Source: a virus
Taxonomy: Duplodnaviria; Caudoviricetes
Virus record (IMG/VR): IMGVR_UViG_2806310702_000003
Span: 25,379-89,378 of that record
Reading direction: 5' to 3' (one strand)
Length of the DNA: 64,000 bases
Below the pieces are notes generated by a model that did no database searches, was not told the origin of the DNA, and saw nothing but the letters and a program-made list of their open reading frames with translations. The number at the start of each line of letters is the position of its first letter. The first letter of the stretch is position 1. The position numbers were made by a program, and so were the translations under genes. Shown one piece after another: positions 170 to 59,645 of this stretch.

Positions 170-418
170 TTATATTTCCTCCTTTAATTTTTGTAAACAT
201 TCCTTACAAATGTTCTTGCCTTTATAGTTAATTACATCTCTAGCATTTCCACAGAATATACAAGCTGGCTGATACTTCTTTAAAATTATCTGTTCTCCTT
301 CAATAAAAATTTCCATGCTTGTTTCATTTTCAGCAATATCTAAAGTTCTTCTTAATTCTTTTGGTAAAACAACCCTGCCTAGCTGGTCCACTTTTCTAAC
401 TACTCCTGTATTTTTCAT
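170..418 (-). CDS. abrB: AbrB-family transition-state regulator
   Basis: MKNTGVVRKVDQLGRVVLPKELRRTLDI...LKKYQPACIFCG matches the AbrB signature. Confidence 0.9.
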   Translation of the reverse strand: MKNTGVVRKVDQLGRVVLPKELRRTLDIAENETSMEIFIEGEQIILKKYQPACIFCGNARDVINYKGKNICKECLQKLKEEI

Positions 419-2730: not shown

Positions 2731-3144
2731 ATGGCAATTTTAAAGAAGGAAAGTAAAAAAAGTGAAATGAAAACATTAGGACAGAAAATAAGGGAACAGA
2801 GAAAATCAAAGGGTTTGACAATAAGAGATTTAGCACAACTTTGTGAAGTATCATCTTCATTTATAGGTTCTATAGAACGAGGTGATAATATGCCTAGCAT
2901 GATAAGAATTAAGCAATTAGCACACATACTAGGTCTAAGCATAACTTATTTACTAGGTGAAAAAGAAATGGAGATAAATGAAAAAGAAGTGCTTGATCGT
3001 TTAAAAGATGGAAATGACAATTATGAAAATTTCTTAAAAAATCATGTATTTCCTAACGGATTAACTTATGACCAAATGTGTGATAAAATAAAAACATTTG
3101 AGCAGTTCCAAATTTTACTTGAAAATGCAAATAAAAAGAAATAA
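2731..3144 (+). CDS. XRE-family HTH repressor (CI-like, phage X)
   Basis: LGQKIREQRKSKGLTIRDLAQLCEVSSSFIGSIERG HTH; divergent from early genes. Confidence 0.85.
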   Translation: MAILKKESKKSEMKTLGQKIREQRKSKGLTIRDLAQLCEVSSSFIGSIERGDNMPSMIRIKQLAHILGLSITYLLGEKEMEINEKEVLDRLKDGNDNYENFLKNHVFPNGLTYDQMCDKIKTFEQFQILLENANKKK

Positions 3145-3215
3145 TATATAAAATTAAACATACAGAAATAGGACAAGTTGAAAAATAACTTTATCCTATT
3201 TCTTTTTTTATTAAA

Positions 3216-4175
3216 TTATTTTTTATTATCATACCATCCTAATAATTTTTTTTCTAAATCATTATAATCATAAGAACGCTGCTCGTAGTTATTAAATGAA
3301 TCAACATTATTTTCTTTTTTATCTTCAACAATTATATTGGTTGTATTTTGCTTATCGATATTATTTAATGTCGCAAGTAAATAGGTATCATAATTTTTTA
3401 TATCCGTAGAAACTGTAGAAGCAGTTATTATTGCTTTTGCTATATTCATATAATCATATACTAATAGTAATTTTTCTATAGTAGTACGTTTAACTTTATA
3501 ATTACATTTTTGAGCAATACATAAAATGTATTTAATCTTTTCTTCTTCATCTGTAGAAGAAGAAGATTTATTATCAGTATTTGTTATATTTTTAGTATTA
3601 GTATTAATAAGTATTTGTTGTCCTTCCTTTTCTATATATAGTTTTTCTACTTGTACCTTTTGGGAAAGTAGTTCAAACGCAGATGTTTCCTTGCTTTCTT
3701 CTAGTTTTCCCTTTTGGCAAAGTAGTATTTCTTCTCTTTCAAGCACAATAGGAATTTGTCTTGTAAATTTACCTACAGTTATTTTTTTAGTTACTATGTT
3801 TCCAGTTTCATCTTTTAGATACTTTTCTTTTACAGAAGCAATAATAAGATGATCCTCAAAAGGTTCTTCTGATACTAGAGTTTCCCAATGATGAACCTTG
3901 CCTGTTTCCATATCGTACACTCTATACCTTTGCATATATTTGTTTTCTATTAATTCATTTATTCCACTTCTAACTGATTTTTCTTTATCTCCAAAACGGA
4001 TTAAGTCTGATATATACACTTGCCAATCATTCGGTTTTGAAAGAATATATGTAGCTATTCCAAGTGCTTTATATGATAAATTTTTATTATTTATTAGATT
4101 ATTTGAGATTTGAGCGAATTTATCTTCCTTTTTTGCTTTTCTAAAGATGCTTTGATTTAAATTGTTTATTGACAT
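3216..4175 (-). CDS. Replication initiator (plasmid-state Rep candidate)
   Basis: N-terminal FAQISNNLINNKNLSYKALG winged-helix type; C-terminal FNNYEQRSYDYNDLEKKLLGW; internal repeats CCTTTTGGNAAAGTAGT; next to ParMR. Confidence 0.7.
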   Translation of the reverse strand: MSINNLNQSIFRKAKKEDKFAQISNNLINNKNLSYKALGIATYILSKPNDWQVYISDLIRFGDKEKSVRSGINELIENKYMQRYRVYDMETGKVHHWETLVSEEPFEDHLIIASVKEKYLKDETGNIVTKKITVGKFTRQIPIVLEREEILLCQKGKLEESKETSAFELLSQKVQVEKLYIEKEGQQILINTNTKNITNTDNKSSSSTDEEEKIKYILCIAQKCNYKVKRTTIEKLLLVYDYMNIAKAIITASTVSTDIKNYDTYLLATLNNIDKQNTTNIIVEDKKENNVDSFNNYEQRSYDYNDLEKKLLGWYDNKK

Positions 4176-4274
4176 AAAAAGTCCTCCTATTATGTATCTA
4201 AAAAAGCTTACACAAATAAGAGGTTTTTACCTAAAATCTATTGACTATTATATATACATATAATATAATTATGT

Positions 4275-4372
4275 ATATAATAAGTATATAGAAAAAGGTT
4301 AAACCTTTATTGTGCATCCGTATCAATTTTAGCGGTCAAACTAATGGATTGATACGGGTTTGTTCTTTTTTG
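4275..4372 (+). ncRNA. Putative antisense (counter-transcript) RNA in the rep leader
   Basis: TTGACT-17-TATAAT at 4241-4269; long hairpin 4316-4359 followed by T-tract; homologous layout at 54540-54670. Confidence 0.55.
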
Positions 4373-4792
4373 ATATTTATTTTTTATTTTCGATTATTTT
4401 TGTATTTATATTGTAATTTTACAACATAATATAATAGTTTGTAAAGCGCTAGTTAAAAAACTGGTGCTTTTATTTTTATTTTACTTTTTATGGGATTTAT
4501 TATAACATAGTAGATATAGATGTTATTAATATTCTATTATAAATCTATTAGGAAAATATCAAGCACACATTTTATAAAAACTTAATATTATAATTATTAT
4601 AAATCTATCAGAAAGCTATCATATTTATACTTGGAATTAGTTATAAATATGATACAAACTTTATTTTAATAGAAAAACAATGAAAATATATTAGAAATAT
4701 GTTGAATAAGTAGCATAAAAAATATATACTATAAGTATTATTAGAATAAAAATAGTTTTCTAATAGAAATATATTAAATTGGGGGAAGTAAT

Positions 4793-5716
4793 ATGGGAAT
4801 TGAAAAAGAAATACAAATTATAGGATTGGACATAGGAAGAGGATATGTCAAGGGGTATTCTGAAATAAACGAAATGAAGAAAGAAGTACTTTTTAAATCT
4901 ATAATAAGTGAAGGAAGATCACTTAATTTTGATGAATTTGAAAATCCAATATATGTAGAAGCAGTTGGAGAAAAATATTTTGCAGGATTATTAGCTGAAA
5001 AGGAAGGGTATACACCTATTAGAAATAGTAAAGACAGCAAAGTATCTGATACAGTTGAAAAACTTGTTTACGCTGCATTAAATTCATTAGCAGTTAAAGA
5101 AAAAGTAAGTATAATGTTTGGTGTTCCTTATAAGCTTTTTAAAAAAAGTACATTAGAAGAAGTTGTATCAAAATATTCTAATAAAAATATTAAAATAAAA
5201 GATAATATAACTGGAGCATATAAAAATATAACAATATGTAATGTAAGTATATTTAGAGAAGCTGATGCAGCAGCTATGTGGGAAGTTAGAAATAACATGG
5301 AAAATGCTAAACCTATTGGAATTGCAAATATAGGATTTAGAACAACAGAACTAAGTTATTTTGACAAAGGATTGAGGTTTAACGATAAATATTCTAAGAC
5401 AATAGAACTGGGAAATAGAACTGCTTTAAAGATGATACAAGACCACCTCGAAAGTAATAATATAATGAAAGAATTACAAGAAATAGATAGTTCTGATGAT
5501 TATGAAAATTTGAAAAGAAAAGCTTATAAAGTACTATCTGAAAGAGTTAGCCAAGATATTGAAGATAACTGGATTAACTTAGACGAAATGGAGATATTAA
5601 TAGCAGGTGGAACTGCTAAACACATGAAATTTGATGAAGGATTTAGAATAATAGATGAACCTCAAATGGCAACTGCTAAAGGGTTGTACTTAGTAGGTAC
5701 TAGAGTTTTTAAATAG
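4793..5716 (+). CDS. parM: ParM/StbA actin-like partition ATPase
   Basis: GLDIGRGYVK, NIGFRTT and LIAGGTA actin-fold motifs. Confidence 0.88.
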   Translation: MGIEKEIQIIGLDIGRGYVKGYSEINEMKKEVLFKSIISEGRSLNFDEFENPIYVEAVGEKYFAGLLAEKEGYTPIRNSKDSKVSDTVEKLVYAALNSLAVKEKVSIMFGVPYKLFKKSTLEEVVSKYSNKNIKIKDNITGAYKNITICNVSIFREADAAAMWEVRNNMENAKPIGIANIGFRTTELSYFDKGLRFNDKYSKTIELGNRTALKMIQDHLESNNIMKELQEIDSSDDYENLKRKAYKVLSERVSQDIEDNWINLDEMEILIAGGTAKHMKFDEGFRIIDEPQMATAKGLYLVGTRVFK

Positions 5717-5724
5717 GTGATATT

Positions 5725-6024
5725 ATGAAAAAAAGTATAAGTTTTAATTTAGAAGAAGATATTATAGAAAAGATAGAGCAATATCAAAAAGAAAAAAGGC
5801 TAAGTTCCAGAAGTGCTGCTCTTGAAAGAATAATTTTATCTATGGATCATATTAATATTAATAACATGTTAGAGATTTTCAAAAATACATTACAAAATAA
5901 TAATATAGATACACAAGTAAAAAAAGAAGATGTAATAGTAGAAGAACCTTTAAAAGAAGAAATAAAAAACAACAAAATAGAAAATAGTGTAAATGATATA
6001 TTTAGTAGTATGCCCCAAGATTAA
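5725..6024 (+). CDS. ParR-like RHH adaptor
   Basis: KKSISFNLEEDIIEKI...SRSAALERII RHH pattern, directly after parM. Confidence 0.7.
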   Translation: MKKSISFNLEEDIIEKIEQYQKEKRLSSRSAALERIILSMDHININNMLEIFKNTLQNNNIDTQVKKEDVIVEEPLKEEIKNNKIENSVNDIFSSMPQD

Positions 6025-6126: not shown

Positions 6127-8481
6127 TCATCTTATTGGTGCTGGTAATTTAGTTATAAATCTAGCATATCCATTTGTTGTTTTTATAAGATTTAAACTAC
6201 TATACCTTTTCAAATTAAGCAAATCTTCTAATTGAAACGGTTGTAATTCTTCTTCTAATTCTTTATAATTTTTCTTATCTGTACCTTGCAATAACATATA
6301 AGATGCTCCAGAAGCTTTTAAAGATTCTCTAATAGTTTCTATTTGACTTAAATAATGTGCTGATATAATAAATTTAAGTTGGAATTTACGACATTGAGGT
6401 AATATATCTTTAAGCATATTTTCGCTTGTAGGTGCTTGAAATATTTCATCTAATAATACATGAGTTCTCAATGGCTTATCATGTATTTTACCTCTAATTT
6501 GAGAAGCTAACCAAATTTTTGTTGTGAAATAAGTTACTATTACATTTTTAACATATTTAAGTGGATATTTATGTTCTGGAATTTTAATTAAGATTACTTT
6601 CCCTTGTTCTAGTTGTTCTACAAAATCTATATTATTTTCTAAGGATTTATTAAACATAAATTTTAATTTGAAATCTTCTTTTAATAAATTTATTCTATCT
6701 AATATGTGTTCTATTTTACTATCTTTATTACTAAATCTTAGTGTTTTTACTTCTTTTGTTGTAGGGTCCTTAATTTCTTTTACTTCATTTAATTCATCTA
6801 GTGCTTTTATTTCATCTTCCAAAAACTTTTTTAAATTTTCTGGAGTTTCTTCATATAATTTATCTCTAGTAGCAGGATATTGTAATGCATTTATAACATC
6901 TCTAAGACTTTTATTTTCTTTTAAATGCACTATATTAGCTGCTGCACTTAAATACCTTCTCATTCTAGAAGTTAAAGGAGCACCATCACTGTTTATTGCA
7001 TCTATTAAAGCCATATCTTGTTGTGCTATTAAATTAGCAGTTTCTAAAATTTCAAACTCTGTCATATTCTCCTTAAATTTAATTTCGTTGTAACCAAACC
7101 CTTGTAGGTCCTGTTCTTTTGACATATCTATAATTAGTAGCTTTTCTTTAGGTACTACTGTTTCAATATCACTAGACAACTCACAGTTTTTAATAAAATC
7201 TAAAACTATAAGGTTTTCTCCAGCTTTAATTACATCACTTGCATAATTTTTGAAGTATTCGGACTTTCCAGAACCCTGTGGACCCATAACTACTAATCCT
7301 AAATTTGCTAAGTTTTTATCACTGCTCATATACGCTAGTTTCTTATTGCCTTTATAATCATTTTCTCCTAGTTTTATATATCCATTTTGCAATTCTTGTG
7401 AAAGTTGATTTTCCAGTATATTTCTATGTTGAATACAACTATATTTTTCTAGTAAATCTCTAGCTGGTAACTGGATAAAATTATGACATTCCTCTGTGCT
7501 TATTCTGTTTTCTTCAACTCTTGCAATTTTAAAATCAGTTGCATTAAATATATGTTTTTTAGAAATTTTTCTATATGAAAGTTCATTATCTTCTGAAATA
7601 GAGTTATAAGATTCCATAATTGAAATGATATTATTACGTTTCCTAATAATTTCTGTACTATCTGATAAAACTAAAATTTGAGTATTTAAGATAGTAGCTT
7701 CTTTTTTATTTAGTGTATGTGTAGAAAGTTTTTTATTAGAATTTAACAAACATGTTGCAAGTTCAAGCAAAGTTTCCTTATTATCTTTTTTTATTTCACC
7801 TCCTATAAAATCCAGAATGCTTTCTGTAAGCATCTGCATAAATTCTAATGCATAAGTGAATATAGTTTTTATTATAAATGCACTACTTCTTTTTTCCCGT
7901 TCTAGAGGTAAATTTCTTTTGAATTTATTTAGAGTTTCATTATAATTCTTTTTCCATGACAATTGACAACAAGGCATGAAATTATAAAATATTCCTATAC
8001 GATCATCATCTTTTAATATATCCAATACATTTAAAATTTGATTAAGAGGTGTATTAGATTTTTTATTGATATTTAAAGATAAAGCATCTTCTTTTTTATA
8101 ATTTAATTGATATTTAAGAACATCTTGAGAAAAGGATTTAACTTCCTTTACTTCTTCTATAGTTATTTGTGACCAAGTTTGAAGAATTTTATCTTTTATA
8201 AGAGTTGCATATTGTTCTGGAACTATAAAATAAAAACTAGTATTATCTTTTGTTATATCTATAAAATAACTGCACTTTACTTGTGTTTCTATAAAATATT
8301 TTTTTTCAACCTTTTTAATTCTCTGATTAATGGTTTTATACATACTTTGAATTGATTTTGCTATATTGGAACTATCATAATTTCTTATAGATGAATGTGG
8401 AATAAGTTTTAAATAAATATACTTTGGTTTAATTATTTCAAAGTAGTTAGATATTTTAATACTAACTTTTTTCTTAAACAT
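6127..8481 (-). CDS. VirB4/TraG-like (FtsK-HerA superfamily) P-loop ATPase, copy 1
   Basis: Walker A GPQGSGKS, Walker B LLDE, CRKFQLKFIISAHYLSQ; clear paralogue of 54812-57136. Confidence 0.75.
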   Translation of the reverse strand: MFKKKVSIKISNYFEIIKPKYIYLKLIPHSSIRNYDSSNIAKSIQSMYKTINQRIKKVEKKYFIETQVKCSYFIDITKDNTSFYFIVPEQYATLIKDKILQTWSQITIEEVKEVKSFSQDVLKYQLNYKKEDALSLNINKKSNTPLNQILNVLDILKDDDRIGIFYNFMPCCQLSWKKNYNETLNKFKRNLPLEREKRSSAFIIKTIFTYALEFMQMLTESILDFIGGEIKKDNKETLLELATCLLNSNKKLSTHTLNKKEATILNTQILVLSDSTEIIRKRNNIISIMESYNSISEDNELSYRKISKKHIFNATDFKIARVEENRISTEECHNFIQLPARDLLEKYSCIQHRNILENQLSQELQNGYIKLGENDYKGNKKLAYMSSDKNLANLGLVVMGPQGSGKSEYFKNYASDVIKAGENLIVLDFIKNCELSSDIETVVPKEKLLIIDMSKEQDLQGFGYNEIKFKENMTEFEILETANLIAQQDMALIDAINSDGAPLTSRMRRYLSAAANIVHLKENKSLRDVINALQYPATRDKLYEETPENLKKFLEDEIKALDELNEVKEIKDPTTKEVKTLRFSNKDSKIEHILDRINLLKEDFKLKFMFNKSLENNIDFVEQLEQGKVILIKIPEHKYPLKYVKNVIVTYFTTKIWLASQIRGKIHDKPLRTHVLLDEIFQAPTSENMLKDILPQCRKFQLKFIISAHYLSQIETIRESLKASGASYMLLQGTDKKNYKELEEELQPFQLEDLLNLKRYSSLNLIKTTNGYARFITKLPAPIR

Positions 8482-8482
8482 A

Positions 8483-8761
8483 TTACACCTCCATAAAACT
8501 TGCTATTGCTTGTATTAATGCGTATCCAGTAATACTAATAGGTATTAACTTTCTTCCTTTTTTGCTACCACACATATATAAAAAGATTGAACCAAAACAT
8601 ATTACCAAAGCTATGTTGTAAGAAGCTCCTGCACCTTTTAAAAATAAGACCTTACAACCTTTAATTGGATGAAACATATAATAAAATCCATTTACAAGTG
8701 TATCTAAACTATTTTTTATTTGATTTAAAGTTTCTAACACATAAACTCCTCCCTTAAGCAA
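8483..8761 (-). CDS. Small membrane protein
   Basis: Two hydrophobic segments; counterpart at 57133-57468. Confidence 0.65.
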   Translation of the reverse strand: MLKGGVYVLETLNQIKNSLDTLVNGFYYMFHPIKGCKVLFLKGAGASYNIALVICFGSIFLYMCGSKKGRKLIPISITGYALIQAIASFMEV

Positions 8762-9164
8762 ATATATCCTTTATAATATCGAGAATCCAAGGCAATAGGT
8801 AAAGACTACTAAAAGCCAAAGCGTATTTTGTAATTATTTTAGCAATACTTTTTGTATCTCCTTGAAGCAATTCTTTTATAATGCTAGTAATACACATAAT
8901 AATACAAGTCCAGTAACCAATAGTTCTACAAATTCCCAAAATAGTATTTCCAGCTTGATCTATTTTTGCAACGCTAGCAGTTGATTTTGCTAATGCATTC
9001 TTGCAATATAACATATTTGCTAATACGAAAATACTTAGCTTTTTTAATTTTGAATTATTATTAATTTCTTTTGCTATTAGCTCCAAATTATTTAATTTCT
9101 TTTGTTCCTTTCTATCTTTTAAATTCTGTAAAAAACTAGAATGGTAAACACAAATTATCTGCAT
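8754..9164 (-). CDS. Membrane protein, TrbC/VirB2 pilin-like topology
   Basis: Start MQIICVY after GGAGG; ALA-type processing site followed by two TM helices; counterpart at 57479-57856. Confidence 0.55.
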   Translation of the reverse strand: MQIICVYHSSFLQNLKDRKEQKKLNNLELIAKEINNNSKLKKLSIFVLANMLYCKNALAKSTASVAKIDQAGNTILGICRTIGYWTCIIMCITSIIKELLQGDTKSIAKIITKYALAFSSLYLLPWILDIIKDIFA

Positions 9165-9222
9165 AAAAACCTCCTTATTGTAAATAATAAAAATAAATTG
9201 ATTCGGAAACGAGGGATATAAA

Positions 9223-9306
9223 ATGGATGTATTTTTTGCAATTACATTATTCATGGGTGGTATTCAAGTTGGAGCAGAAACAGTTTGTAAATTTTTAGGA
9301 ATGTAA
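9223..9306 (+). CDS. 27-aa hydrophobic micropeptide MDVFFAITLFMGGIQVGAETVCKFLGM
   Basis: RBS GAGGG; SigF/G-like promoter at 9161-9189; positional counterpart at 57928-57990. Confidence 0.55.
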   Translation: MDVFFAITLFMGGIQVGAETVCKFLGM

Positions 9307-9455
9307 ACAATATGTTAATAATTACAAAGTAAGTCGCAAAAGAGTAAACTTTTAGAAAGTTATAACATACGCTAGGAGTATACGAGGAAGCGTAGCAAGG
9401 AGTAACTCATAGCTTTCCTAGGCAAAGCCTAACCATTAATGGAAGGCTTTGTTTT
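9302..9455. other. Conserved non-coding element, copy 1
   Basis: Blocks TGTAAACAATATGTTAAT, AGTAAGTCGCAAAA, AGTAAACTTTTA, CATACGCTAG, AAGCGTAGCA, CTAACCAT shared with 57993-58150. Confidence 0.75.
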
Positions 9456-9497
9456 TATATATTTTTGATTAATGTTGGAGCAATTTTTATATAAAAT

Positions 9498-9650
9498 TTA
9501 CTCCTTATTTTCTTTTTGCTTTTTTAAATACTTTATATAGTATTCTATTGCATTTTTAATAAAGTTACTTTTTTCTTCCTGCCCCTGTACTTCTAAATAT
9601 AAATTCATATCTCTAGTAGTTTGTTTAAAGCTAACAGGTATTTTAGGCAT
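9498..9650 (-). CDS. 50-aa RHH-like DNA-binding protein
   Basis: MPKIPVSFKQTTRDMNLYLEV...KSNFIKNAIEYY; RBS AGGAGG; counterpart at 58178-58339. Confidence 0.65.
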   Translation of the reverse strand: MPKIPVSFKQTTRDMNLYLEVQGQEEKSNFIKNAIEYYIKYLKKQKENKE

Positions 9651-9893
9651 ATATTTTAATACCTCCTTACATCTTATTTAATACTAATGTATACAAAAAG
9701 GGTTCAAATTGTTACTAATTTCATTGACAAATTAAATAAAAATATTTAATATTTATATATAATTAACTATGTGGTATGTAAATTATGTTTATTATTATAT
9801 TTACAATGAACTTTTATATTAACTATGTGAGAAGTTATTTTCTATAAAAAAAACAAGGATACCTAAAATATAGTATCCTTAAAAATTATTATT

Positions 9894-28389: not shown

Positions 28390-28426
28390 ATATCAATGCC
28401 CCTTCACAATCTACTATTTTTCTTTA

Positions 28427-29223
28427 CTTTATTTTTGCGAAACTAATCTAATTCATTTCTTACAATTTCTTTTACTATTTTTAATAGAAATTGATTAGTT
28501 TTTTCATTTGGTTTTTGTGTTTTATATTTTTCTTCATGTTCTTTAGCAATACTTAACATATATTCCGCCATGCTTTCAAAATCTGATTTAGAATATACTC
28601 CATTTTTTATATTTAACAGCCATTTTCTATTACATTCATCTTTTTCATACCATATTGCTTTTTTAAAATCTGTAAAATTATTATTAGCAAATCTTATTAA
28701 AAAATCTAATATCCTTATACTATGCATAGCTTGTTTGGTATCATATCCATATTTATTAACTAAATGTTGTGTTCCCTGTGTCCCTTTATCTACTTGCTTC
28801 TTTTTATTAATGTGCATACCAATACAAGCATTATATAAATAAGGTAGATTCATTTTTACAATTTCATTTCTCATATTATAAATTTCAGTTATTAAAAACT
28901 TTGTTTTTATATCAATATTGTCAGGTATTAAAAATTTTTTACTAAACAATACTTCGAGAAAATTTACATTAGACTTCCACCACAAACTTGATATTTTCCT
29001 TATATCATGTACATCATAATCCTCTGTTTCTCCTATATAGGATTTACTAAATTGATTATTGAAATATAAATCATTAAATGTTGGAGCTACAAATAATTTA
29101 TAATCCTTATCACTTGTCTCTGTATTAAGATTATAATTATGAGAACCTACTAAAACCCTAAATAATTCTTTTCTTCCTTCAAAATCCATTTTGCCTTCTC
29201 TCCTTCACAATCTACTATTTTTT
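28427..29223 (-). mobile_element. Putative gene cassette carrying a nucleotidyltransferase
   Basis: Same conserved ends as the MTase cassette, at 29202-29223 and 28427-28441. Confidence 0.65.
28443..29189 (-). CDS. Pol-beta superfamily nucleotidyltransferase (RlaP/YcgL-like)
   Basis: GSHNYNLNTETSDKD (GS...DxD); KYGYDTKQAMH. Confidence 0.75.
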   Translation of the reverse strand: MDFEGRKELFRVLVGSHNYNLNTETSDKDYKLFVAPTFNDLYFNNQFSKSYIGETEDYDVHDIRKISSLWWKSNVNFLEVLFSKKFLIPDNIDIKTKFLITEIYNMRNEIVKMNLPYLYNACIGMHINKKKQVDKGTQGTQHLVNKYGYDTKQAMHSIRILDFLIRFANNNFTDFKKAIWYEKDECNRKWLLNIKNGVYSKSDFESMAEYMLSIAKEHEEKYKTQKPNEKTNQFLLKIVKEIVRNELD

Positions 29224-29239
29224 GTACATGTATTGAAGC

Positions 29240-30490
29240 TTAAAATATTGATTTAATTTCTTGCAATTCTTTAATGAATAAATCTAATTTAGATTTTTCT
29301 ATAGCAATAGCACCTATTTTTTTTACATTTTTATCTTCTATACAAATAACTTCATCATCTTTTATATACTTCATTAATCCTTCTACTGTTGTAGGTTTAA
29401 GAAGTGGTTTCTGTTCTTCAATATCTTTTTCTAATGTTTTATGTACATATTCTGTTACTTCTTTACAATTTATATTATCAGTGTTAATTACTTTATTTTC
29501 ATTTTTTTTAGGTTCTTGAGCATATATTTTAGTTCCTTTTGGAATTTCTATTTCTTCTATTTCTTTTGGTTTAAATGATATATTTTTTTTATTATAATAA
29601 CTTCTATACGTTGTTACAGTAGACATTGTTATTCCTAATGTCTTTACTACTTCTGTGTTTGTAAGTCCTTTCTTAAATAGTTCAAAAGCTTTTTCTTTCT
29701 TTGACATTTCTCCTTCTCTCCTTCTATATCTTTTATTTTCTTTATATTCTTTTACACTTAGTATTTCTCTAAGTTTATTAAGTGCTTTCTTTTCTTGTCT
29801 TGAAACATGTACTTGAGTAATCCCAAGCAATTTGGCTGTTTCTACTTGTGTCTTATCTTTAAAATATCTTAATTCAATAATTGCTCTAAGTTGAGGGTTT
29901 AGTTGTTTTATAGCTTCTTGTACTAGGATATTATTCAATACAGTATCTTCTTTAAATACATTTCCTTCAATATTATCAGCTAATGTTATAAAAGTAGAGC
30001 CATCACTATGTATGATTTTTTCTATACTCTGTACTAAGTTAGTATTTGATAATTTCAAGCCTTCTTGAACTTCTTCTACTGTAAACCCTGTTTCCTTTAC
30101 TATTTCTTCTATAGTTGGACTTCTATTAAATTTTCTTTCCAATAAATATTCTATATATTTAATTTTATTTCTTATATCTAAAAGTGGTCTTGGAATTTTT
30201 ATAGGGTTTGTATCTCTTAAAAATCTTTGTACTTCTCCCATAATCATAGGAACTGCATAACTCGAAAATTTAACATCGTATTCTTTAGGATTGAAATTCT
30301 TAATTGCTTTAACAAGTCCAATATTGCCCATTTGTATTATATCCTCAGCTTCATGTTCTTTATTAAAGAACTTTTTACATGTACTTATCACTAACGGCTT
30401 ATTAAGTTCAAAACTTAATTCAAATGCATTCTTATCACCTTTTTGAGCTTTTTCAATTAATGCATTATTATCATTATATGTTAATTCCAT
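29240..30490 (-). CDS. SigF/SigG-like sigma factor with long C-terminal extension
   Basis: AQKGDKNA, GNIGLVKAIKNF, KFSSYAVPMIMGEVQRFLRD, RYFKDKTQVETAKLLGITQVHVSRQEKK. Confidence 0.88.
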   Translation of the reverse strand: MELTYNDNNALIEKAQKGDKNAFELSFELNKPLVISTCKKFFNKEHEAEDIIQMGNIGLVKAIKNFNPKEYDVKFSSYAVPMIMGEVQRFLRDTNPIKIPRPLLDIRNKIKYIEYLLERKFNRSPTIEEIVKETGFTVEEVQEGLKLSNTNLVQSIEKIIHSDGSTFITLADNIEGNVFKEDTVLNNILVQEAIKQLNPQLRAIIELRYFKDKTQVETAKLLGITQVHVSRQEKKALNKLREILSVKEYKENKRYRRREGEMSKKEKAFELFKKGLTNTEVVKTLGITMSTVTTYRSYYNKKNISFKPKEIEEIEIPKGTKIYAQEPKKNENKVINTDNINCKEVTEYVHKTLEKDIEEQKPLLKPTTVEGLMKYIKDDEVICIEDKNVKKIGAIAIEKSKLDLFIKELQEIKSIF

Positions 30491-45534: not shown

Positions 45535-45780
45535 TTAACAATAATATCTTCTTCTAGTAGATTCTCCACCTCTGATGTGCCTTACTTTTAAGTTGTAATC
45601 TAATACTTTTCTAACTTCTTTTGCTAATTTGGGATTTACTAACTCTAATCTTTTTGTTGCATCCTTATGAATAGTGCTTTGACTAACGCCAAAAACTTTC
45701 GCTGCTTTTCTGATAGTAGCTTTAGTTTTTAAAAGATAAGCTCCAACCTCTCTTGACCTATTTGCTACATAATCTTTCAC
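45535..45780 (-). CDS. spoIIID: Sporulation regulator SpoIIID homologue
   Basis: KATIRKAAKVFGVSQSTIHKDATKRL...RHIRGGESTRRRY. Confidence 0.9.
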   Translation of the reverse strand: MKDYVANRSREVGAYLLKTKATIRKAAKVFGVSQSTIHKDATKRLELVNPKLAKEVRKVLDYNLKVRHIRGGESTRRRYYC

Positions 45781-47487: not shown

Positions 47488-47554
47488 CCCTCCTATTTAC
47501 ATTTTAATTACATTTACATAATATTGTATATGTAAACTTATTATTTTCACTTTA

Positions 47555-48057
47555 CTTTATTTTTGCGAATTAAATTTCATGAAAACTAACCAATGCGTCT
47601 TTGCTCTTTTATTTCCCAATAAAGGTTTATGATCTATAACCTTTAAAATTTCTTTTAGCTTTATTTGTTCCTCATTCCACTTAAAAATTAATACTCCATA
47701 GTTGTCTAAAACTCTCATGCATTCTTCAAACCCTTTTTTAATATCTATTGGCCAATCATTATTTAACTTTCCATATTTCTTGGCCAACCAAGAATTTTCT
47801 CCAACTTTAATTAAATGTGGTGGATCAAAAACTACTAGCTTGAAAGTATTATCTTTATATGGAATATGTCTAAAATCTCCTACCACATCTGGTTTAATTA
47901 TTAATTTTCTTCCGTCACATAATGTATCTTCCAATTCTCTATTATCCATAAAAATTGCATCTTTATTTTCTTTATCAAACCAAAACATTCTGCTTCCACA
48001 ACATACATCTAATATAGGCTTTTCCAAACTCTCACCCCTTCACAATCTACTATTTTT
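47555..48057. repeat. 503-bp direct repeat, copy 2
   Basis: Matches 1029-1531, offset 46,526 bp. Confidence 0.93.
47557..48027 (-). CDS. SAM-dependent methyltransferase, copy 2
   Basis: Translation identical to 1031-1501. Confidence 0.8.
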   Translation of the reverse strand: MEKPILDVCCGSRMFWFDKENKDAIFMDNRELEDTLCDGRKLIIKPDVVGDFRHIPYKDNTFKLVVFDPPHLIKVGENSWLAKKYGKLNNDWPIDIKKGFEECMRVLDNYGVLIFKWNEEQIKLKEILKVIDHKPLLGNKRAKTHWLVFMKFNSQK

Positions 48058-54811: not shown

Positions 54812-57136
54812 TTAATGTATTGAAGGTGGTAGTTGAGTTATAAATTTTGACCAACCATCTTCATACTTTATTAAATTTAAACTGTTATATCTTTTAAGAT
54901 TTAATAGATCTTCTAATTGATATGGATATAATTCTTCTTTAAGTTCGTTGTAGTTATCTTTATCACATCCAGATATAAGCATATAGGAACTGTTAGCTGC
55001 TTTAAGCTCATTTCTTATGTTTTTTATTTGACCCAAATAATGGCATGATATTATAGGTTTACATGAAAACTTTGCTATTTGACTTAATTTGCTTCTTAAA
55101 AAATTTTGACAATTAGGAACTTGATATAATTCATCAAACACTATATTAACTTTAATTCTATCGTTAGAATTGGGTATATTCCATTTTCTAACTTGTAAAG
55201 TTCCCCAGATTTTAGTTAACCAGTAAGTACAATATATATCTTTTTCCTGTTCAGTTGAAAACATTATTTCAGGCATACGAATACAAATTAATTGTGATTT
55301 TTGTATTTCATCTACTAAATTAATATTATTTTCGCAATCCTTTTTAAGCATAAGTTCCATATAGGTATTTTGTTTTAATTTAACAAATCTATTTAATATA
55401 CCTTGAATATAACTAATCTTAGTTCCAGTAATTTCCCTTGGACAGTCTTTTGTAGGTTTAGACCACTCATCTAGTTCTTTCAATGCTCTTATATATTCTT
55501 CTAAATTGTTTTCTTGATCTTTTGGAATATTATCTATAAAATTATGTCTTATTATATGATCTTGTAATACATCAAATACATTTTTAATGCTTCCATTTGA
55601 TATAAATACAACTAAAGCAGCAGCTTCTAAATACCTTTCCATTCTTGCTTTAAGATCTTCATTATCACTTAGTGCATTAATAAGTGTCATAAGTTGTACT
55701 GTTTTAGCTTTAGCACATCTATATATTTCAAATACATTTTTATTTAAAGGAGTTATTTCGTTATATCCTAAACCTTGTAGATTATCAAAATTACTGCAAT
55801 CTATATTTAAAACTTTATTTTTTTTTATAGATTTTGATACGTCATTAGATAAATCACAGTTACCACAAAAATCAAACAGTATAGTACATTCCCCTGCATT
55901 AATACTATCTTTAGATAAATTAGATATAAGAGTAGTTTTACCTGATCTAGTTGGCCCTATTAAACATAATGTTAAATTTTTAAATTCTTTATCATTAGAT
56001 AAATATGCTTTTTTCTTATTTCCTTTATATTCACTCACCCCTATACACATAGTACCTTGTTCTAATTCTTTAGGTATAGGACTTTCTAATACATCTATTT
56101 TAGAAATACATTTATGCTCATCTAATAATTCTCTTCCTGGAAGTTGTAAAAAATTTTGACATTCTTCAATACTTGTTTTATTTATAGCTGCATCAGATAA
56201 TTTAAAATTAGTATAATTAATATTAGTTTTAAACTTTTTATATGTTAATTCATTATCATCACTTATACTTTTAAAAGCTTCTGTTATGGCTAGTGCATTA
56301 TTATATTTTCTATTAATATCAGGACTATCGCTTTGAATAACTATTTGTGTATTTATAATATTAGTATCTTTTTTCTTTTGTGTGGACTTAGATATTTCTC
56401 TTTTATCATTTATTATTAGACTATTTAATATGTTTTCTATTAAATTTACTTTATCTTCTTTTTTGGTATTAAAAAGTTCTTCAAAACCTTCAGCAAATCC
56501 TTGTATTATCTCTAGTATTGTGGTTAATATAAGTTTTAATATATATAAAGGAGATACTATTTCATTTAAAACAGATTCACCATTTTTTATTTTTTGAATA
56601 GTGTGTTTATATCTTTTAGTCCAATTTTTTTCACTAGTTGGCATGAAATTATATAGAATACCAACCCTATCATCTGTATTTATTATATTTAAAGTATTAA
56701 GGATACTATTAAGAGGTTCATTAGATTTTTTATCTAGTTTTAAAGATAATGCATCTTCATATTTGTAATAAAGATAGTATCTCAAAGCATCTTTTGAAAA
56801 GTTGGGTATAGTATCTACTGTTTCAATTGTTATCTTAGACCATGTTTCTGTTAATTTTTCTTTAAATAATGATTGATATGCATCTGGAACAATAAAGTAA
56901 AAATCAACCTTATTTTTCATAATATCTATATAAAAGCTGCACTTTAAAGGTGCTTCTATATTCCATGTTTTTTTATCTTTACGTATTCTATTTTTCATAT
57001 CTTTATATAGTGAGTTAATTGTATTTGCAATATTGCTAGAATTGTAATTTCTTATAGATGTATCTGGAATTAATTTTAAGATTATATAAGTTGGATGAAT
57101 TATTTTAAAATATTGACTTAGTTTAATAGTTTTCAT
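54812..57136 (-). CDS. VirB4/TraG-like P-loop ATPase, copy 2
   Basis: Walker A GPTRSGKT, Walker B VFDE; shares EDLLNLKRYxSLNLIK with copy 1. Confidence 0.75.
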   Translation of the reverse strand: MKTIKLSQYFKIIHPTYIILKLIPDTSIRNYNSSNIANTINSLYKDMKNRIRKDKKTWNIEAPLKCSFYIDIMKNKVDFYFIVPDAYQSLFKEKLTETWSKITIETVDTIPNFSKDALRYYLYYKYEDALSLKLDKKSNEPLNSILNTLNIINTDDRVGILYNFMPTSEKNWTKRYKHTIQKIKNGESVLNEIVSPLYILKLILTTILEIIQGFAEGFEELFNTKKEDKVNLIENILNSLIINDKREISKSTQKKKDTNIINTQIVIQSDSPDINRKYNNALAITEAFKSISDDNELTYKKFKTNINYTNFKLSDAAINKTSIEECQNFLQLPGRELLDEHKCISKIDVLESPIPKELEQGTMCIGVSEYKGNKKKAYLSNDKEFKNLTLCLIGPTRSGKTTLISNLSKDSINAGECTILFDFCGNCDLSNDVSKSIKKNKVLNIDCSNFDNLQGLGYNEITPLNKNVFEIYRCAKAKTVQLMTLINALSDNEDLKARMERYLEAAALVVFISNGSIKNVFDVLQDHIIRHNFIDNIPKDQENNLEEYIRALKELDEWSKPTKDCPREITGTKISYIQGILNRFVKLKQNTYMELMLKKDCENNINLVDEIQKSQLICIRMPEIMFSTEQEKDIYCTYWLTKIWGTLQVRKWNIPNSNDRIKVNIVFDELYQVPNCQNFLRSKLSQIAKFSCKPIISCHYLGQIKNIRNELKAANSSYMLISGCDKDNYNELKEELYPYQLEDLLNLKRYNSLNLIKYEDGWSKFITQLPPSIH

Positions 57137-57468
57137 AATGCTACTCCTATTATATTAACTATGGCATATCCCATTAAAGTCCATCCAGATAATTTAAGAC
57201 CTTTTTTCCAACCAGAAGCCCACAATATTATACCTATACTTCCTACGCAAACTGCAACAGGATAACTTATTGTAAATAAGCCAATCCAAATATTTCTAGG
57301 GTGCAGTAAATAATGATTAATATTATCTATTATATTAAATAATTTTGTTAGCTTTTCATTAAGCTCTTTTAAAATTCCTATATGATTTATCAAAGGCTCT
57401 TTCAATGTATTGCTCGGAGTTACATATTTTCCTCTTTCAATTAATTCTTCTAAACAATTTATAAACAT
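57133..57468 (-). CDS. Small membrane protein
   Basis: HP..W...SY..A...G.KKG.K pattern shared with 8483-8761. Confidence 0.65.
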   Translation of the reverse strand: MFINCLEELIERGKYVTPSNTLKEPLINHIGILKELNEKLTKLFNIIDNINHYLLHPRNIWIGLFTISYPVAVCVGSIGIILWASGWKKGLKLSGWTLMGYAIVNIIGVAL

Positions 57469-57478
57469 TATATACCTC

Positions 57479-57856
57479 CTAGCCTAGTGATTTAATTAAA
57501 TCTAAAGCATGAAGAAATAAAACAAGACAAGCAAATCCTATGCCATATTTAGTTACTACTTTTATAACATCCTTAGTTTCCCCTTGTGTAACTTCTGTAA
57601 GTATATCTTTTCCTCCATAGATTGCAATTACCCAGTAGCCTATAAGCAATAATAATTTCCAAAATGCTTTTCCTATATTATCTGCTTTTTCTAATGCAGT
57701 AGCTAAATCATTTGCATAAACAGTTTGAGTGAATGCATCACATGTCATACCTAAGAAAAAAGTTTTATATAAAATATCTTTAATTATTTTTTTGAATTTT
57801 ATTTTTTTATTATCATAAGTTTTATTTTTTTTACAATACATAAAAATAATTTTCAT
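57479..57856 (-). CDS. Membrane protein, TrbC/VirB2 pilin-like topology
   Basis: VYA site, IGYW...QGETK...TKY shared with 8754-9164. Confidence 0.55.
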   Translation of the reverse strand: MKIIFMYCKKNKTYDNKKIKFKKIIKDILYKTFFLGMTCDAFTQTVYANDLATALEKADNIGKAFWKLLLLIGYWVIAIYGGKDILTEVTQGETKDVIKVVTKYGIGFACLVLFLHALDLIKSLG

Positions 57857-57866
57857 AAAATCCTCC

Positions 57867-57895: not shown

Positions 57896-57927
57896 ATATT
57901 AAGGATTAATTTAGAGAGGTGTTAAAC

Positions 57928-57990
57928 ATGTTTTGGGTTGGTATAGGATTAGTTGCTATTTCAAGTACAGTTTTAACTTTTTGCTATTAA
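57928..57990 (+). CDS. 20-aa hydrophobic micropeptide MFWVGIGLVAISSTVLTFCY
   Basis: RBS GAGGTG; positional counterpart of 9223-9306. Confidence 0.55.
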   Translation: MFWVGIGLVAISSTVLTFCY

Positions 57991-57992: not shown

Positions 57993-58150
57993 TGTAAACA
58001 ATATGTTAATTATCAAATAGTAAGTCGCAAAACAGTAAACTTTTAAAAGTCTATTGCATACGCTAGAAGTGTAAGCGAGTAAGCGTAGCACGAAGCACAC
58101 TTATAGCTTTTATGCCACAAGTCTAACCATCTGTGTTGGACTTATTTTTT
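57993..58150. other. Conserved non-coding element, copy 2
   Basis: Collinear blocks shared with 9302-9455. Confidence 0.75.
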
Positions 58151-58177
58151 ATGCTAAAATGCATAAATTAGCATAAA

Positions 58178-58339
58178 TTATATATCATTATTTTTAAATT
58201 TTTTCTCTTCATCTTCCATGTGTTTTTGAACTAAATTTTTAATAAAAATACTTTTACTTCTTTTTTGCTGTAGATAATTATATACTTTTATATCATCAAT
58301 ATTTCTTTCAGAAAATGATATTGAAATTCTAATGCTCAT
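58178..58339 (-). CDS. 53-aa RHH-like protein
   Basis: MSIRISISFSERNIDDIKVYNYL...KSIFIKNLV. Confidence 0.65.
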   Translation of the reverse strand: MSIRISISFSERNIDDIKVYNYLQQKRSKSIFIKNLVQKHMEDEEKKFKNNDI

Positions 58340-58408
58340 CTTTAACATTCCTTTCCGAATTGTTTATATTATATAATATGTTAAAGTATATAAAAATGTT
58401 ACTGTTTT

Positions 58409-58448
58409 ATATAAAAAGATATAAAAATATATAAAAAGATATAAAAAG
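58409..58448. repeat. Tandem ~10-bp ATATAAAAAG repeats (parC candidate; related repeats at 59690-59790)
   Basis: Four near-identical units flanking parR; similar motif upstream of parM. Confidence 0.5.
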
Positions 58449-58468
58449 AGCTGGCATAGTGCCAACTC

Positions 58469-58771
58469 TTATCTATTTAAACTATTTAGTACACCTTTTA
58501 TTGCTTTTTTCTTTTTCTTTGTAGTTTCAGTTTTTTCTACTTTAATAGGAGCATTAAAATTCATTTCTCCTAAAACTTCTTTAACTACATCTTTTATCAT
58601 ATTTTTATTTGATAAAAATTCAGATTCTTTCATGTCTTTTCTTATAAGGTCTTTAATGTAAGTTGCAAAAGGTTTGTCTTGATTTTCAGCCCATTCTAAT
58701 AATTGTTTTTCATTATCACTAAATGGTACTGGTTTACTTTTTCTTTTATTCATCATCCTCACCAAATTCAT
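58469..58771 (-). CDS. ParR-like RHH adaptor
   Basis: PVPFSDNEKQLLEWA...FATYIKDLIRKDM, after parM. Confidence 0.7.
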   Translation of the reverse strand: MNLVRMMNKRKSKPVPFSDNEKQLLEWAENQDKPFATYIKDLIRKDMKESEFLSNKNMIKDVVKEVLGEMNFNAPIKVEKTETTKKKKKAIKGVLNSLNR

Positions 58772-59645
58772 TATCAGCTACAGTTTGATATACTTTTTGA
58801 TTAATAGATTGACTTTCTGGAACTAGTTCTATTACTGGGAAGTGTTTTTTCCAGTAATTAATAGTATCAGCACCACCTCCACCGATTAAATAGATTTTAC
58901 TAGCATTTTTAACTTTAAAATCATTTTTAATAAATGATGCTATTTCAGTTATATGATTTTCAACAATTGGTCTTATATCAGTTATATCAGTTTCAACATT
59001 ATTTATAATTGCTGTCTTCTTGTTTAGTAATTTTTCAATATCAGTTGGTTTATAATCAGAACCTTTATTAAGATTTAAGTAACTAGATATGTCAGCATAC
59101 ATTTTATACATACTTTCATTATAAGTTGCAGAATTAAGAATGCTTAGTTCTTCCCACTGCGTTACATTTATTGTACCGGCACCATTATCAATTACAATTA
59201 CATTAGATTCATCTTCGGTTAAAATAGGATACGCAGCTTCTATAAAAACTATACAATCAGTTATTCTTATAGTGTATTCTTTATCATTAACAGTTATTTG
59301 TTGTTGTCCATAACCAATTATGTGTTTTTTTAGTTTATCACCTATTAGTTTATATTTCTTTTCTGGAACACCTACTACTACATTAGCATCTATAAAATCC
59401 TCATTGTTTTCACTAAGTGCAATTGAAGTTAAAAGGCACACTTTATAATATTCACTAAAATATCTTTCATCTCCAGTAAAAGGAGCCCCTTGTCCTATAA
59501 TATAATTTATATCATTATATTTAACATAATGTACTTCTTTTTTATGCTTGCCAAATCCAACCCTTTCACCTATTTTTACTCTACTTGCAAACTTGCCAAC
59601 CGGAAGTTTAGTATAACCATTTCCAACATCTATACCTATATTCAT
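58746..59645 (-). CDS. parM: ParM/StbA actin-like ATPase
   Basis: GIDVGNGYTK, IDNGAGTIN, LIGGGA. Confidence 0.88.
   Translation of the reverse strand: MNIGIDVGNGYTKLPVGKFASRVKIGERVGFGKHKKEVHYVKYNDINYIIGQGAPFTGDERYFSEYYKVCLLTSIALSENNEDFIDANVVVGVPEKKYKLIGDKLKKHIIGYGQQQITVNDKEYTIRITDCIVFIEAAYPILTEDESNVIVIDNGAGTINVTQWEELSILNSATYNESMYKMYADISSYLNLNKGSDYKPTDIEKLLNKKTAIINNVETDITDIRPIVENHITEIASFIKNDFKVKNASKIYLIGGGGADTINYWKKHFPVIELVPESQSINQKVYQTVADNEFGEDDE

Follow-up and report, generated by a model that had tools for sequence, protein, structure and literature searches.

The last 64 kb of the 89,378-bp IMG/VR record IMGVR_UViG_2806310702_000003 (the window, i.e. the whole stretch of 64,000 nucleotides that was analysed; G+C 24-32%) carry, twice and both times on the minus strand, a cassette that runs in the order: ribbon-helix-helix (RHH) gene, conserved element, opposing micro-open reading frame (micro-ORF), two genes for small membrane proteins (TM1 and TM2), and a gene for an ATPase of about 780 amino acids (aa). 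This cassette is the clostridial form of the gp31-31.1-31.2-gp32 cassette of phage SPP1 and of the gp27.4 cassette of phage SPO1, and its ATPase family is, with few exceptions, restricted to elements (phages and plasmids) of endospore-formers. In our reading, which is put forward tentatively and falls somewhat short of probable, a membrane DNA motor would work with a partition system to place non-integrated phage genomes in spores.

The cassette and its two copies

The features of copy A (first eleven lines) and copy B are the following.

6127..8481, minus strand: ATPase A of 784 aa, in phrog_5156 and the FtsK-HerA superfamily, with Walker A at G405 K406 and Walker B at D678 E679
8483..8761, minus strand: TM2-A, 92 aa, with two hydrophobic segments; 1 nucleotide (nt) separates its stop from the ATPase start
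8754-9164, minus strand: TM1-A, 136 aa, with a signal-like N-terminus and two hydrophobic helices
9161..9188, plus strand: SigF/G-type promoter-like motif of micro-gene A; the opposite-strand TM1 start codon and the -35 of this motif overlap
9223..9306, plus strand: micropeptide A, 27 aa, hydrophobic, with a ribosome-binding site (RBS) in front
9302..9436, plus strand: conserved element A (the '150-bp element'), putative structured 3' untranslated region (3'UTR) of the micro-gene RNA
9424..9460, plus strand: terminator of micro-gene A, hairpin and T-run
9498..9650, minus strand: RHH-like protein A, 50 aa, phrog_18533
9686..9715, minus strand: SigK/E-like promoter motif upstream of RHH-A, GTAACA, 16 nt, TATACATT
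9762..9840, no strand: two 23-nt direct repeats (9762-9784, 9818-9840) upstream of sense promoter A
4793..6024, plus strand: ParM-A (ALP_N) and ParR-like A, convergent with ATPase A
54812..57136, minus strand: ATPase B, 774 aa, 45% identical to ATPase A
57133..57468, minus strand: TM2-B, 111 aa; 4-nt overlap with the ATPase start
57479..57856, minus strand: TM1-B, 125 aa
57867..57894, plus strand: SigF/G-type promoter-like motif of micro-gene B
57928..57990, plus strand: micropeptide B, 20 aa, hydrophobic, with an RBS in front
57993..58130, plus strand: conserved element B, putative structured 3'UTR
58119..58153, plus strand: terminator of micro-gene B
58178..58348, minus strand: RHH-like protein B, 56 aa, matching phrog_4223 and phrog_8966
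58373..58402, minus strand: SigK-like promoter motif upstream of RHH-B, GTAACA, 16 nt, CATATTAT
58409..58449, no strand: 11-nt direct repeat in three copies, upstream of sense promoter B
58469..59645, minus strand: ParM-B and ParR-like B, in the same orientation as cassette B and immediately upstream

The original prediction, made from the letters alone, had described a same-order module at 6127-9716 and 54812-58402, with a conserved 150-bp element, SigK/E-like motifs before the RHH genes, SigF/G-like motifs before the micropeptides, and Rep and ParMR genes beside it. All of these are found where it had placed them, Rep-like genes and ParM/ParR adjoining the cassette. Between the two copies, the non-coding element is 82% identical over 140 nt, compared with 63% for the ATPase genes at the DNA level, and the conservation of the element is therefore real. 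TM1 and TM2 share 30-35% identity across their C-terminal parts, and a comparison of RHH-A with RHH-B gave no similarity. The TM2 and ATPase genes are translationally coupled. As to the gene boundaries, TM1-A most likely starts at the RBS-preceded ATG at 9164, although the listed ORF extends to 9254, and the conserved micro-ORF of copy B is 57928-57990 (plus strand), not the mechanically listed 37-aa ORF at 57933-58046. The hairpin of micro-gene A was missed by the automated terminator scan because its loop is 12 nt long. Besides, intrinsic terminators follow the endolysin gene (9881-9854) and ParR-B (58470-58446), so that the RHH gene opens a new transcription unit. The 23-nt repeats upstream of RHH-A are possibly an operator or centromere-like site, or else a solitary CRISPR-type repeat. 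One of them gives a sub-threshold match to CRISPR-DR14 (9752-9783, minus strand; E 0.06, 31.3 bits, the gathering score being 45).

Relatives, published cassette and host range

When 50,697 phage records were searched by tblastn with the ATPase, 107 matched, distributed among phages of Bacillus (99), Geobacillus (2), Lysinibacillus (2), Clostridium (1) and Terrisporobacter (1), and the deep-sea phage D6E (2). The matches include phiCp-D (47%), the Terrisporobacter phage TPDSL_ph2 (36%; this phage has an integrase) and SPO1 gp27.4, and SPP1 gene 32 (gp32) aligns at 23% identity (tblastn E 4e-21 over 94% of the query). With SPP1 gp32 as the query, 106 of the 107 matching records are phages of endospore-formers, the exception being one Microcystis phage record. 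A homologue is present in 55 of 72,556 plasmids (32 of Clostridium, 22 of Bacillus and 1 of Alicyclobacillus). Phages of Staphylococcus, Streptococcus, Listeria, Lactococcus and Enterococcus, which are heavily sampled in the collection used, gave no match among the 50,697 records. The co-occurrence with spore-forming hosts that had been anticipated thus holds, the family being found almost only in phages and plasmids of endospore-formers.

In addition, 75 related viral loci with a closer ATPase alignment were gathered, and the RHH, TM, TM, ATPase order is also present in SPP1, GBK2, phiCp-D and TPDSL_ph2, with two small genes before the ATPase. For SPP1, HHpred ties the C-terminus of gp32 to TrwB, VirB4 and FtsK (Godinho et al. 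2018, PMC6316719). In the part of that paper used here, gp31.1 and gp31.2 are membrane proteins, and gp31.1, gp31.2 and gp32 are proposed together as a possible translocon with no role assigned (PMC6316719); the core cassette is therefore known, though uncharacterised. Its carriers comprise the strictly lytic phages SPP1 and SPO1, integrase-bearing phages and plasmid-type elements, and the cassette is therefore not specific to extrachromosomal prophages, to which the original prediction had tied it.

The ATPase and the small membrane proteins

The ATPase is, as judged by profile comparison, a distinct family of the FtsK-HerA superfamily, whose C-terminal half is a motor of the type IV coupling protein (T4CP)/VirB4-like kind and whose N-terminal domain is family-specific. 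Both copies fall into phrog_5156, to which PHROGs assigns no function (E 4e-102 for A and 2.6e-87 for B), and against Pfam and NCBIfam they give sub-threshold P-loop matches alone, the NCBIfam one being a TraD P-loop in copy B. An exhaustive search of 1.84 billion proteins gave 573 cluster representatives at E <= 0.001. In a 57-sequence alignment of the family, the Walker A residues G405 K406, the Walker B residues D678 E679 and the arginines R539 and R596 are invariant. A single-sequence search of the PDB gave no match; the alignment profile matches solved structures weakly and in the P-loop regions only (HerA, DptH, TrwB, DotL, STIV B204, VirB4). The full-length structural neighbours of the ESM Atlas model (TM-score 0.67-0.69) carry DUF8128, DUF87, TrwB_AAD_bind, TraG-D_C and T4SS-DNA_transf. 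TrwB_AAD_bind itself matches 11 of the 57 members weakly at E <= 1e-3 (best 4.9e-6), and ATPase B reaches 14.6 bits against the cut-off of 20.5 for the coupling-protein family (TrwB_AAD_bind/T4SS-DNA_transf). In the hydropathy scan, no membrane segment was found in ATPase A and one internal segment (193-215) in ATPase B, and an N-terminal anchor is absent from both copies.

Regarding the two small proteins, a C-terminal part is common to the TM1 homologues, with a GD.K loop flanked by two hydrophobic helices, and follows a signal-like segment; TM2 homologues have in common a two-helix hairpin with a G.KK loop. None of 36 TM1 homologues matches Pfam TrbC or T4SS_pilin at E <= 0.05, and no TM1 or TM2 member matched the Pfam families VirB3 and TcpE. 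The ESM Atlas leads for TM1 are TrbC/VirB2 pilin clusters (feature scores 0.88-0.90, TM-score 0.50-0.53, below the bar for naming), so the 'pilin-like' label given to this protein comes down to a lead made of VirB2/TrbC-like topology and weak language-model hits, and not to membership. The hhalign comparison of the TM1 and TM2 profiles with TcpD and TcpE was negative (E 0.011 and 0.14), and against phrog_5422, the gp31.1 family, window TM2 reaches no better than E 0.002. On the RHH side, SPP1 gp31 matches the same RHH PHROGs as window RHH-B and the window ParR-like protein. As a separate observation, SPO1 gp29.1 aligns weakly with the TM1 profile (E 0.0069 over 79 columns).

These data bear on the idea that the cassette is a minimal conjugation-like apparatus moving the prophage between cells. 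Such an apparatus would account for the small, small, ATPase order, which resembles TcpD-TcpE-TcpF of pCW3, for the alignment of TcpF with the C-terminal half of the ATPase over 334 columns (E 0.0077; TcpA aligns over 67 columns only), and for the TrbC/VirB2 leads of TM1. Nevertheless, TM1 and TM2 lack the Pfam TrbC, T4SS_pilin and TcpE matches just described, and the VirB4 (AAA_10, PF12846) identity of the ATPase was rejected: 0 of the 57 family members match at E <= 1e-3, against 5.9e-78 for the control TcpF. Neither the relaxase PF03432 nor AAA_10/VirB4 was matched anywhere in the 89-kb record, as the original prediction had said in finding no relaxase or other type IV secretion system (T4SS) genes, and the PHROG annotations of 87 window ORFs contain no channel, hydrolase or relaxase gene. 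A search of the record for Replic_Relax likewise gave no match, in a weak test in which the control genomes were silent too. Finally, the 55 carrier plasmids were typed as non-mobilizable (47) or mobilizable (8) and none as conjugative, and the cassette also occurs in lytic phages. Cell-to-cell transfer, one of the two roles first considered, is thereby disfavoured and appears to us very improbable. The 'VirB4/TraG-like' description stands at the superfamily level only, as an FtsK-HerA/T4CP-like motor with membrane partners, and fails as an assignment to the VirB4 family.

Link to partition genes

The link between the cassette and DNA segregation was evaluated in the 67 viral loci with enough upstream sequence, by choosing, among the co-oriented ORFs in the 3.5 kb upstream of the ATPase, the largest one; 14 loci without an ORF of at least 200 aa and 4 duplicates being set aside, 49 distinct ORFs entered a Pfam scan, which is used in place of an earlier ParM tblastn count (16 of 75 loci) that was an undercount. 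Partition NTPases make up 25 of the 49, namely 20 of ParM type (ALP_N), in agreement with the co-occurrence with ParM that had been predicted, 3 of TubZ type (Tubulin) and 2 of ParA type; the remainder are 7 lysins, 2 integrases and other families or ORFs without a match. The loci in which ParM is replaced are:

L061, L076 and L078, about 3690-4780: TubZ-type tubulin upstream of the cassette
L048 and L050, about 2813-3568: ParA-type ATPase upstream of the cassette

The presence of three unrelated partition NTPases beside one conserved cassette argues for a functional tie to DNA segregation. In the same line, D6E has a partition protein upstream of its cassette, and the region of the SPO1 ATPase gp27.4 is flanked by gp27.9, an actin-like protein (E 2e-27). 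The gene directly downstream of gp27.4, gp27.3, codes for a Replic_Relax protein; no relatives of it were found beside the clostridial cassettes.

A tie of this kind could also mean that the cassette is a vegetative DNA-handling accessory of partition or replication with no link to spores, which may anchor phage DNA at the membrane or pole. The co-oriented partition genes directly upstream in 25 of 49 loci, the RHH/ParR-like protein that belongs to the cassette, the early expression of the SPP1 genes (PMC6316719) and the Replic_Relax protein of SPO1 are all in keeping with it. This view does not account for the conservation and enrichment of SigF/G- and SigK-type motifs described below, nor for the restriction of the family to endospore-formers although ParM plasmids and phages are widespread elsewhere, and we regard it as unlikely.

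The antisense micro-gene and its structured 3'UTR

An nhmmer search from the two window copies (one iteration) detects the conserved element in phiCp-D and in 50 of the 72 viral loci that could be tested; its orientation is constant, and in every case it lies 0.8-1.1 kb upstream of the ATPase. In 46 of the 47 distinct element loci, the opposite strand bears an RBS-preceded ORF of 19-30 codons for a hydrophobic peptide (mean hydropathy 1.47), whose stop codon abuts the element. Besides, 13 of the 19 distinct loci without a detectable element keep the micro-ORF immediately upstream of TM1, which brings it to 59 of 66 clostridial-type loci overall. Read along the peptide strand, the alignment shows promoter-like blocks, the RBS, the ORF, an AT-rich inverted repeat and conserved blocks, and in its 3' part a stem with compensatory changes, then a hairpin with a T-run.

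In the closing stem predicted by RNAalifold, one pair occurs as GC (17) and AU (12), and another as CG (12), GU (7), UA (5) and AU (3). For the closing stem and terminator together, 90.8% of cells are paired versus 77.1% in shuffles, and covariation is 0.392 versus 0.147, values that 0 of 500 shuffles reach in either case; controls slid along the alignment pair at 28-55%. At one pair of the terminator, 28 of 30 sequences have U.G, and the other strand would pair there in 2 of 30 only; this strand bias, together with the support for the structure, therefore indicates a functional RNA on the peptide (window plus) strand. From the alignment and the folding, the '150-bp element' is thus taken to be the putative structured 3'UTR, about 135 nt long, and terminator of an antisense micro-gene RNA. 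None of the covariance models of Rfam 15 matched the element at the gathering threshold, the only hit being SpF56 (E 8, 9254-9333).

The micro-ORF extends beyond the clostridial loci. In SPP1, the end of gene 31 is overlapped by an unannotated antisense ORF (L005:3098-3151, minus strand), which has a strong RBS and codes for a hydrophobic peptide of 17 aa. Under one fixed micro-ORF criterion, applied to the 1.6 kb upstream of the ATPase in 7 distant loci of Bacillus/Geobacillus type, 4 have such an ORF (SPP1, GBK2, D6E and TP-84), the background being 0.058 per kb per strand (15 in 258.7 kb). A hairpin and T-run follow 32-71 nt past the micro-ORF stop in SPP1, GBK2 and TP-84. The antisense transcript is predicted to be short, about 100-260 nt. 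The long structured UTR is thus a clostridial elaboration of an older feature.

In this context, the micro-gene could stabilise the phage-plasmid as an addiction module resembling type I toxin-antitoxin systems, with the ATPase cassette as a separate, chance neighbour; the hydrophobic peptide would be the toxin, and the antitoxin would be the complementary sense-operon leader or an unseen small RNA. The peptide is indeed small (<60 aa), hydrophobic and RBS-preceded, its mRNA would have a long structured 3'UTR and a terminator, and the predicted transcription is convergent and overlapping. Such modules are moreover common in prophages and plasmids, whose maintenance they aid (PMC6563280, in the part drawn on here). 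Nevertheless, the place of the micro-ORF in the cassette is fixed from the strictly lytic SPP1, which has nothing to stabilise, to Clostridium. The peptides have 17-30 aa, mostly without a charged C-terminus, whereas the known clostridial toxins in that source have 34-59 aa (PMC6563280). Furthermore, the micro-gene promoter is of forespore type and not of SigA/SigB type, there is no Rfam match, and the promoter scans of both copies identified no antitoxin promoter. Taken together, we consider an addiction module quite unlikely.

Promoter motifs on both strands

Forespore (SigF) promoters have been mapped in Clostridioides difficile (PMC7438776, Table S5, part 1 of 2; context in the consulted part of PMC3789822), and the pattern derived from Table S5 matches the window exactly twice, at 9161-9188 and 57867-57894, which are the two micro-gene promoters. 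The weight of these matches lies in their placement, not in their count. In the related loci, the strict pattern is found at the micro-gene promoter in 24 of 46 cases and a looser one in 37 of 46, and the SigF-type layout is repeated in D6E, TP-84 and GBK2, SPP1 having the -10 part only. A position weight matrix scan of the record for the micro-gene promoter gave nothing above shuffles beyond the two training sites. The idea that the phage's own SigF/G-like sigma factor uses this motif as its general late promoter was therefore rejected.

On the sense strand, the scan covered 64 distinct loci and, in each, the 150 nt that precede the gene opening the co-oriented chain (RHH or ParM-ParR). The C. 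difficile SigK promoters of Table S6, part 1 of 2 (PMC7438776) have AC at -35 and CATAnnnT at -10, 16-17 nt apart. The corresponding sense motif, AC-N16/17-CATAnnnT, was found in 21 of the 64 loci (mean 1.2 and maximum 5 in shuffles, 0 in the reverse complement), and a tighter form in 28 of 64 versus 0.54 in shuffles; the sense promoter of copy B fits this SigK-type layout. SigA-type promoters were not enriched in the corresponding scan (6 versus 8.8 expected, 9 versus 8.9 expected), and by-eye inspection of the alignment found no SigA promoter for the operon consistently present within the element. SigK of C. perfringens and C. botulinum has both an early and a late role (PMC3738446, in the portion considered), and a SigK-type sense promoter could therefore fire at the onset of sporulation. 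The compartment-type regulation that the original prediction had guessed at gains support in that the motifs are conserved over dozens of diverged loci and match promoters mapped in C. difficile, which would be consistent with control by the two compartments. In SPP1, a single sequence, a terminator-like hairpin followed by a palindrome and a mother-cell-type promoter-like motif was noticed upstream of gene 31 (L005, about 2775-2815, plus strand).

Proposed mechanism and points against it

Regarding the way in which the cassette could act, the RHH protein would mark the phage genome at the repeats upstream of its own gene and pass it to a membrane-anchored hexameric DNA motor, and the motor and the partition system would place or pump a non-integrated copy of this genome into the forespore, leading to virospore formation or to spore inheritance of phage-plasmids. 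The sense genes would be switched on at sporulation onset and inside the mother cell; the antisense RNA and peptide, driven by SigF/G in the forespore, would silence the cassette or else label the receiving side. Translocation through the sporulation septum by the cassette is in this scheme what we infer. SPO1 forms virospores, for which its ParM gene 27.9 is named as a candidate factor (PMC12991052, as far as the consulted part goes); gene 27.9 lies in the same cluster as gp27.4. The fuller picture would be that of a dedicated, sporulation-wired genome-into-spore machine extending from SPP1 and Geobacillus phages to Clostridium phage-plasmids and made of an RHH adaptor, a membrane pair, a motor, partition coupling, a SigK/E on-switch and a SigF/G antisense silencing or marking device; taken with all of these parts, it is rather doubtful.

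Several observations weigh against delivery into spores by this cassette. To begin with the SPP1 genes, they are non-essential and belong to the early PE5 unit of vegetative infection (PMC6316719), and no homology to gp31.1 and gp31.2 of SPP1 emerged when the TM1 and TM2 profiles were compared with them by hhalign (E 0.3 and 0.64). Under the fixed criterion, PBC1, SPO1 and TPDSL_ph2 have no micro-ORF in the 1.6 kb upstream of the ATPase. As for the promoters, those on both strands are motif matches throughout: two SigF-pattern matches per window are not rare, since 21 of 100 shuffles gave at least 2, the strict SigF pattern is absent from 22 of the 46 loci, and in copy A the sense -10 does not match the motif, its first C being replaced by T. 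With respect to the machine itself, DNA binding and translocation by family members are predicted activities, and no channel component able to span two membranes was found. In addition, the host restriction could stem from boundaries of phage gene pools and not from function. Finally, mad8 of the candidate MADS defence system resembles the ATPase motor (E 5.8e-10 and 2.8e-5).

Some of these points would equally suit a membrane-associated device for exclusion, defence or counter-defence, acting in vegetative cells, e.g. by blocking or expelling competitor DNA. The likeness to mad8 and the early, non-essential expression of the SPP1 cassette (PMC6316719) are in its favour, as is the fact that some loci adjoin defence-like genes in accessory regions (SIR2_2 in L038 and L041, RelA_SpoT in L053). 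It leaves unexplained why partition NTPases of three unrelated kinds are linked to the cassette, why both strands have promoters of sporulation type and why phages of non-sporulating Firmicutes gave no matches, and is in our view improbable, to the same degree as the vegetative accessory of partition considered above.

Genome setting and neighbouring genes

Beyond the cassette, the PHROG annotation of the 87 further window ORFs gives structural, lysis and replication genes of tailed phages. A 513-bp repeat (99.6% identity; 1019-1531 and 47545-48057), located within two methyltransferase genes, splits the 89-kb record into two related phage genomes, so that cassette copies A and B are each carried by a different phage; two co-resident phage-plasmids may have been joined in the record, as a cointegrate or through chimeric assembly. 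The sporulation-related regulators of the original prediction, SpoIIID, a SigF/G-like sigma factor and AbrB, are all present, the first two in the first phage only and not, as had been written, in the phages generally. The first phage encodes the 416-aa SigF/G-like sigma factor (29240-30490, minus strand) and the SpoIIID homologue (45535-45780, minus strand), both with scores slightly below the NCBIfam cut-off; the second phage has a weak 179-aa sigma-like ORF alone, outside the window. A MazE/AbrB-fold protein is encoded at window positions 170-418. Two further observations concern the record: a 67-nt repeat (28401-28467 and 29202-29268) precedes the sigma gene and the next gene downstream, and a RAGATH-18 RNA match above the gathering score (63915-63975, minus strand; 60 bits, E 2e-9) adjoins an integrase gene.

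Among the related loci, a small Xre-type helix-turn-helix (HTH) gene recurs upstream of the RHH/ParM genes in many cases, and SIR2-like or RelA/SpoT-domain genes lie immediately upstream of the cassette in three. The IMG/VR contigs L010, L014, L016, L024, L066 and L068 stop 3-42 bases past the ATPase match; such ends are probably due to provirus-boundary trimming at gene edges, and are not true genome ends. The features of these loci and of the SPO1 neighbourhood are listed below.

L006, 1325-1771, 1872-2891 and 6558-7382: features of the SPO1 gp27.4 neighbourhood (gp27.9, gp27.3, gp29.1)
L075, 4281-4523: Xre-type HTH gene
L029, 4057-4293: Xre-type HTH gene
L010, 4517-4717: Xre-type HTH gene
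L058, 3514-3765: Xre-type HTH gene
L065, 3622-3822: Xre-type HTH gene
L025, 4327-4527: Xre-type HTH gene
L038, 2597-3979: SIR2_2, possible defence/alarmone gene
L041, 2506-4023: SIR2_2, possible defence/alarmone gene
L053, 2548-3390: RelA_SpoT, possible defence/alarmone gene

Novelty and significance

How the DNA of lytic phages and plasmid-prophages enters spores (virospores, the carrier state, phage-plasmid inheritance) is a decades-old question, and the existing explanations invoke, in the main, Spo0A boxes of the host and par sites that are borrowed. SPO1 ParM is the sole phage factor named as a candidate up to the ISME J 2026 paper, in the part of it used here (PMC12991052), and beyond that paper and the SPP1 genome paper, the literature searched gave nothing on the function of the cassette or on spore-entrapment factors. 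The restriction to endospore-formers, the ParM/TubZ/ParA linkage, the conserved antisense micropeptide gene (including that of SPP1), the structured 3'UTR and the paired sporulation-type promoters appear to be new, no descriptions of them having been found in the literature searched, a search outside which the supplements of other papers lie. The orphan 'putative translocon' of SPP1 is thereby turned into a concrete and cheaply testable hypothesis of spore delivery, whose proposed function can be tested directly in Bacillus subtilis, and Rfam lacks the structured RNA and micropeptide motif that the analysis newly contributes.

Comparison with known systems

The closest system is the SPP1 cassette, which shares with the clostridial form a homologous ATPase, the RHH-membrane-membrane-ATPase order, RHH PHROGs and an antisense hydrophobic micro-ORF. 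The clostridial form adds to these the long putative 3'UTR, the SigK-like sense promoter and the direct ParM/TubZ/ParA link, and homology of its TM1 and TM2 to the small membrane proteins of SPP1 was not detected. The part of the SPP1 account used here (PMC6316719) makes no mention of the micro-ORF, the promoters, a partition linkage or a host restriction.

The TcpD-TcpE-TcpF set of pCW3 and VirB2-VirB3-VirB4 of T4SSs resemble the window cassette in having two small membrane proteins followed by an ATPase of about 800 aa with its motor in the C-terminal half, and in the pilin-like topology of TM1. Unlike them, the window cassette gives no AAA_10, TcpE, TrbC or T4SS_pilin match and has no partners of VirB6, VirB8, hydrolase or relaxase type, and its carriers are not conjugative. 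With the coupling proteins TrwB, VirD4 and TraG, the ATPase has in common the weak TrwB_AAD_bind matches (11 of 57), the structural neighbours with TraG-D_C and T4SS-DNA_transf, and an adjacent RHH gene, RHH accessory proteins being known to act with type IV coupling proteins. It differs from them in lacking N-terminal membrane helices and in possessing a large family-specific N-terminal domain, and no relaxase accompanies it.

Regarding the hydrophobic micro-gene, the type I toxin-antitoxin loci of Firmicute prophages (PMC6563280, in the portion covered) are alike in their small hydrophobic peptide, structured mRNA, overlapping convergent transcription and mobile-element context. The cassette differs in that its peptides are shorter and mostly without a charged tail, its micro-gene promoter is of forespore type, its position within the cassette is fixed, lytic phages included, and no antitoxin RNA was identified.

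Finally, two sporulation systems offer points of comparison. SpoIIIE and FtsK are DNA pumps, and SpoIIIA-SpoIIQ forms a channel between mother cell and forespore. The former have a motor of the same superfamily, and the latter may serve as a working analogy, in that a machine is split between compartments under mother-cell and forespore sigma factors. In contrast to both, the cassette shows no sequence membership in these systems and its membrane parts are separate small proteins; besides, its forespore-side product would be only a peptide of 17-30 aa or an RNA.

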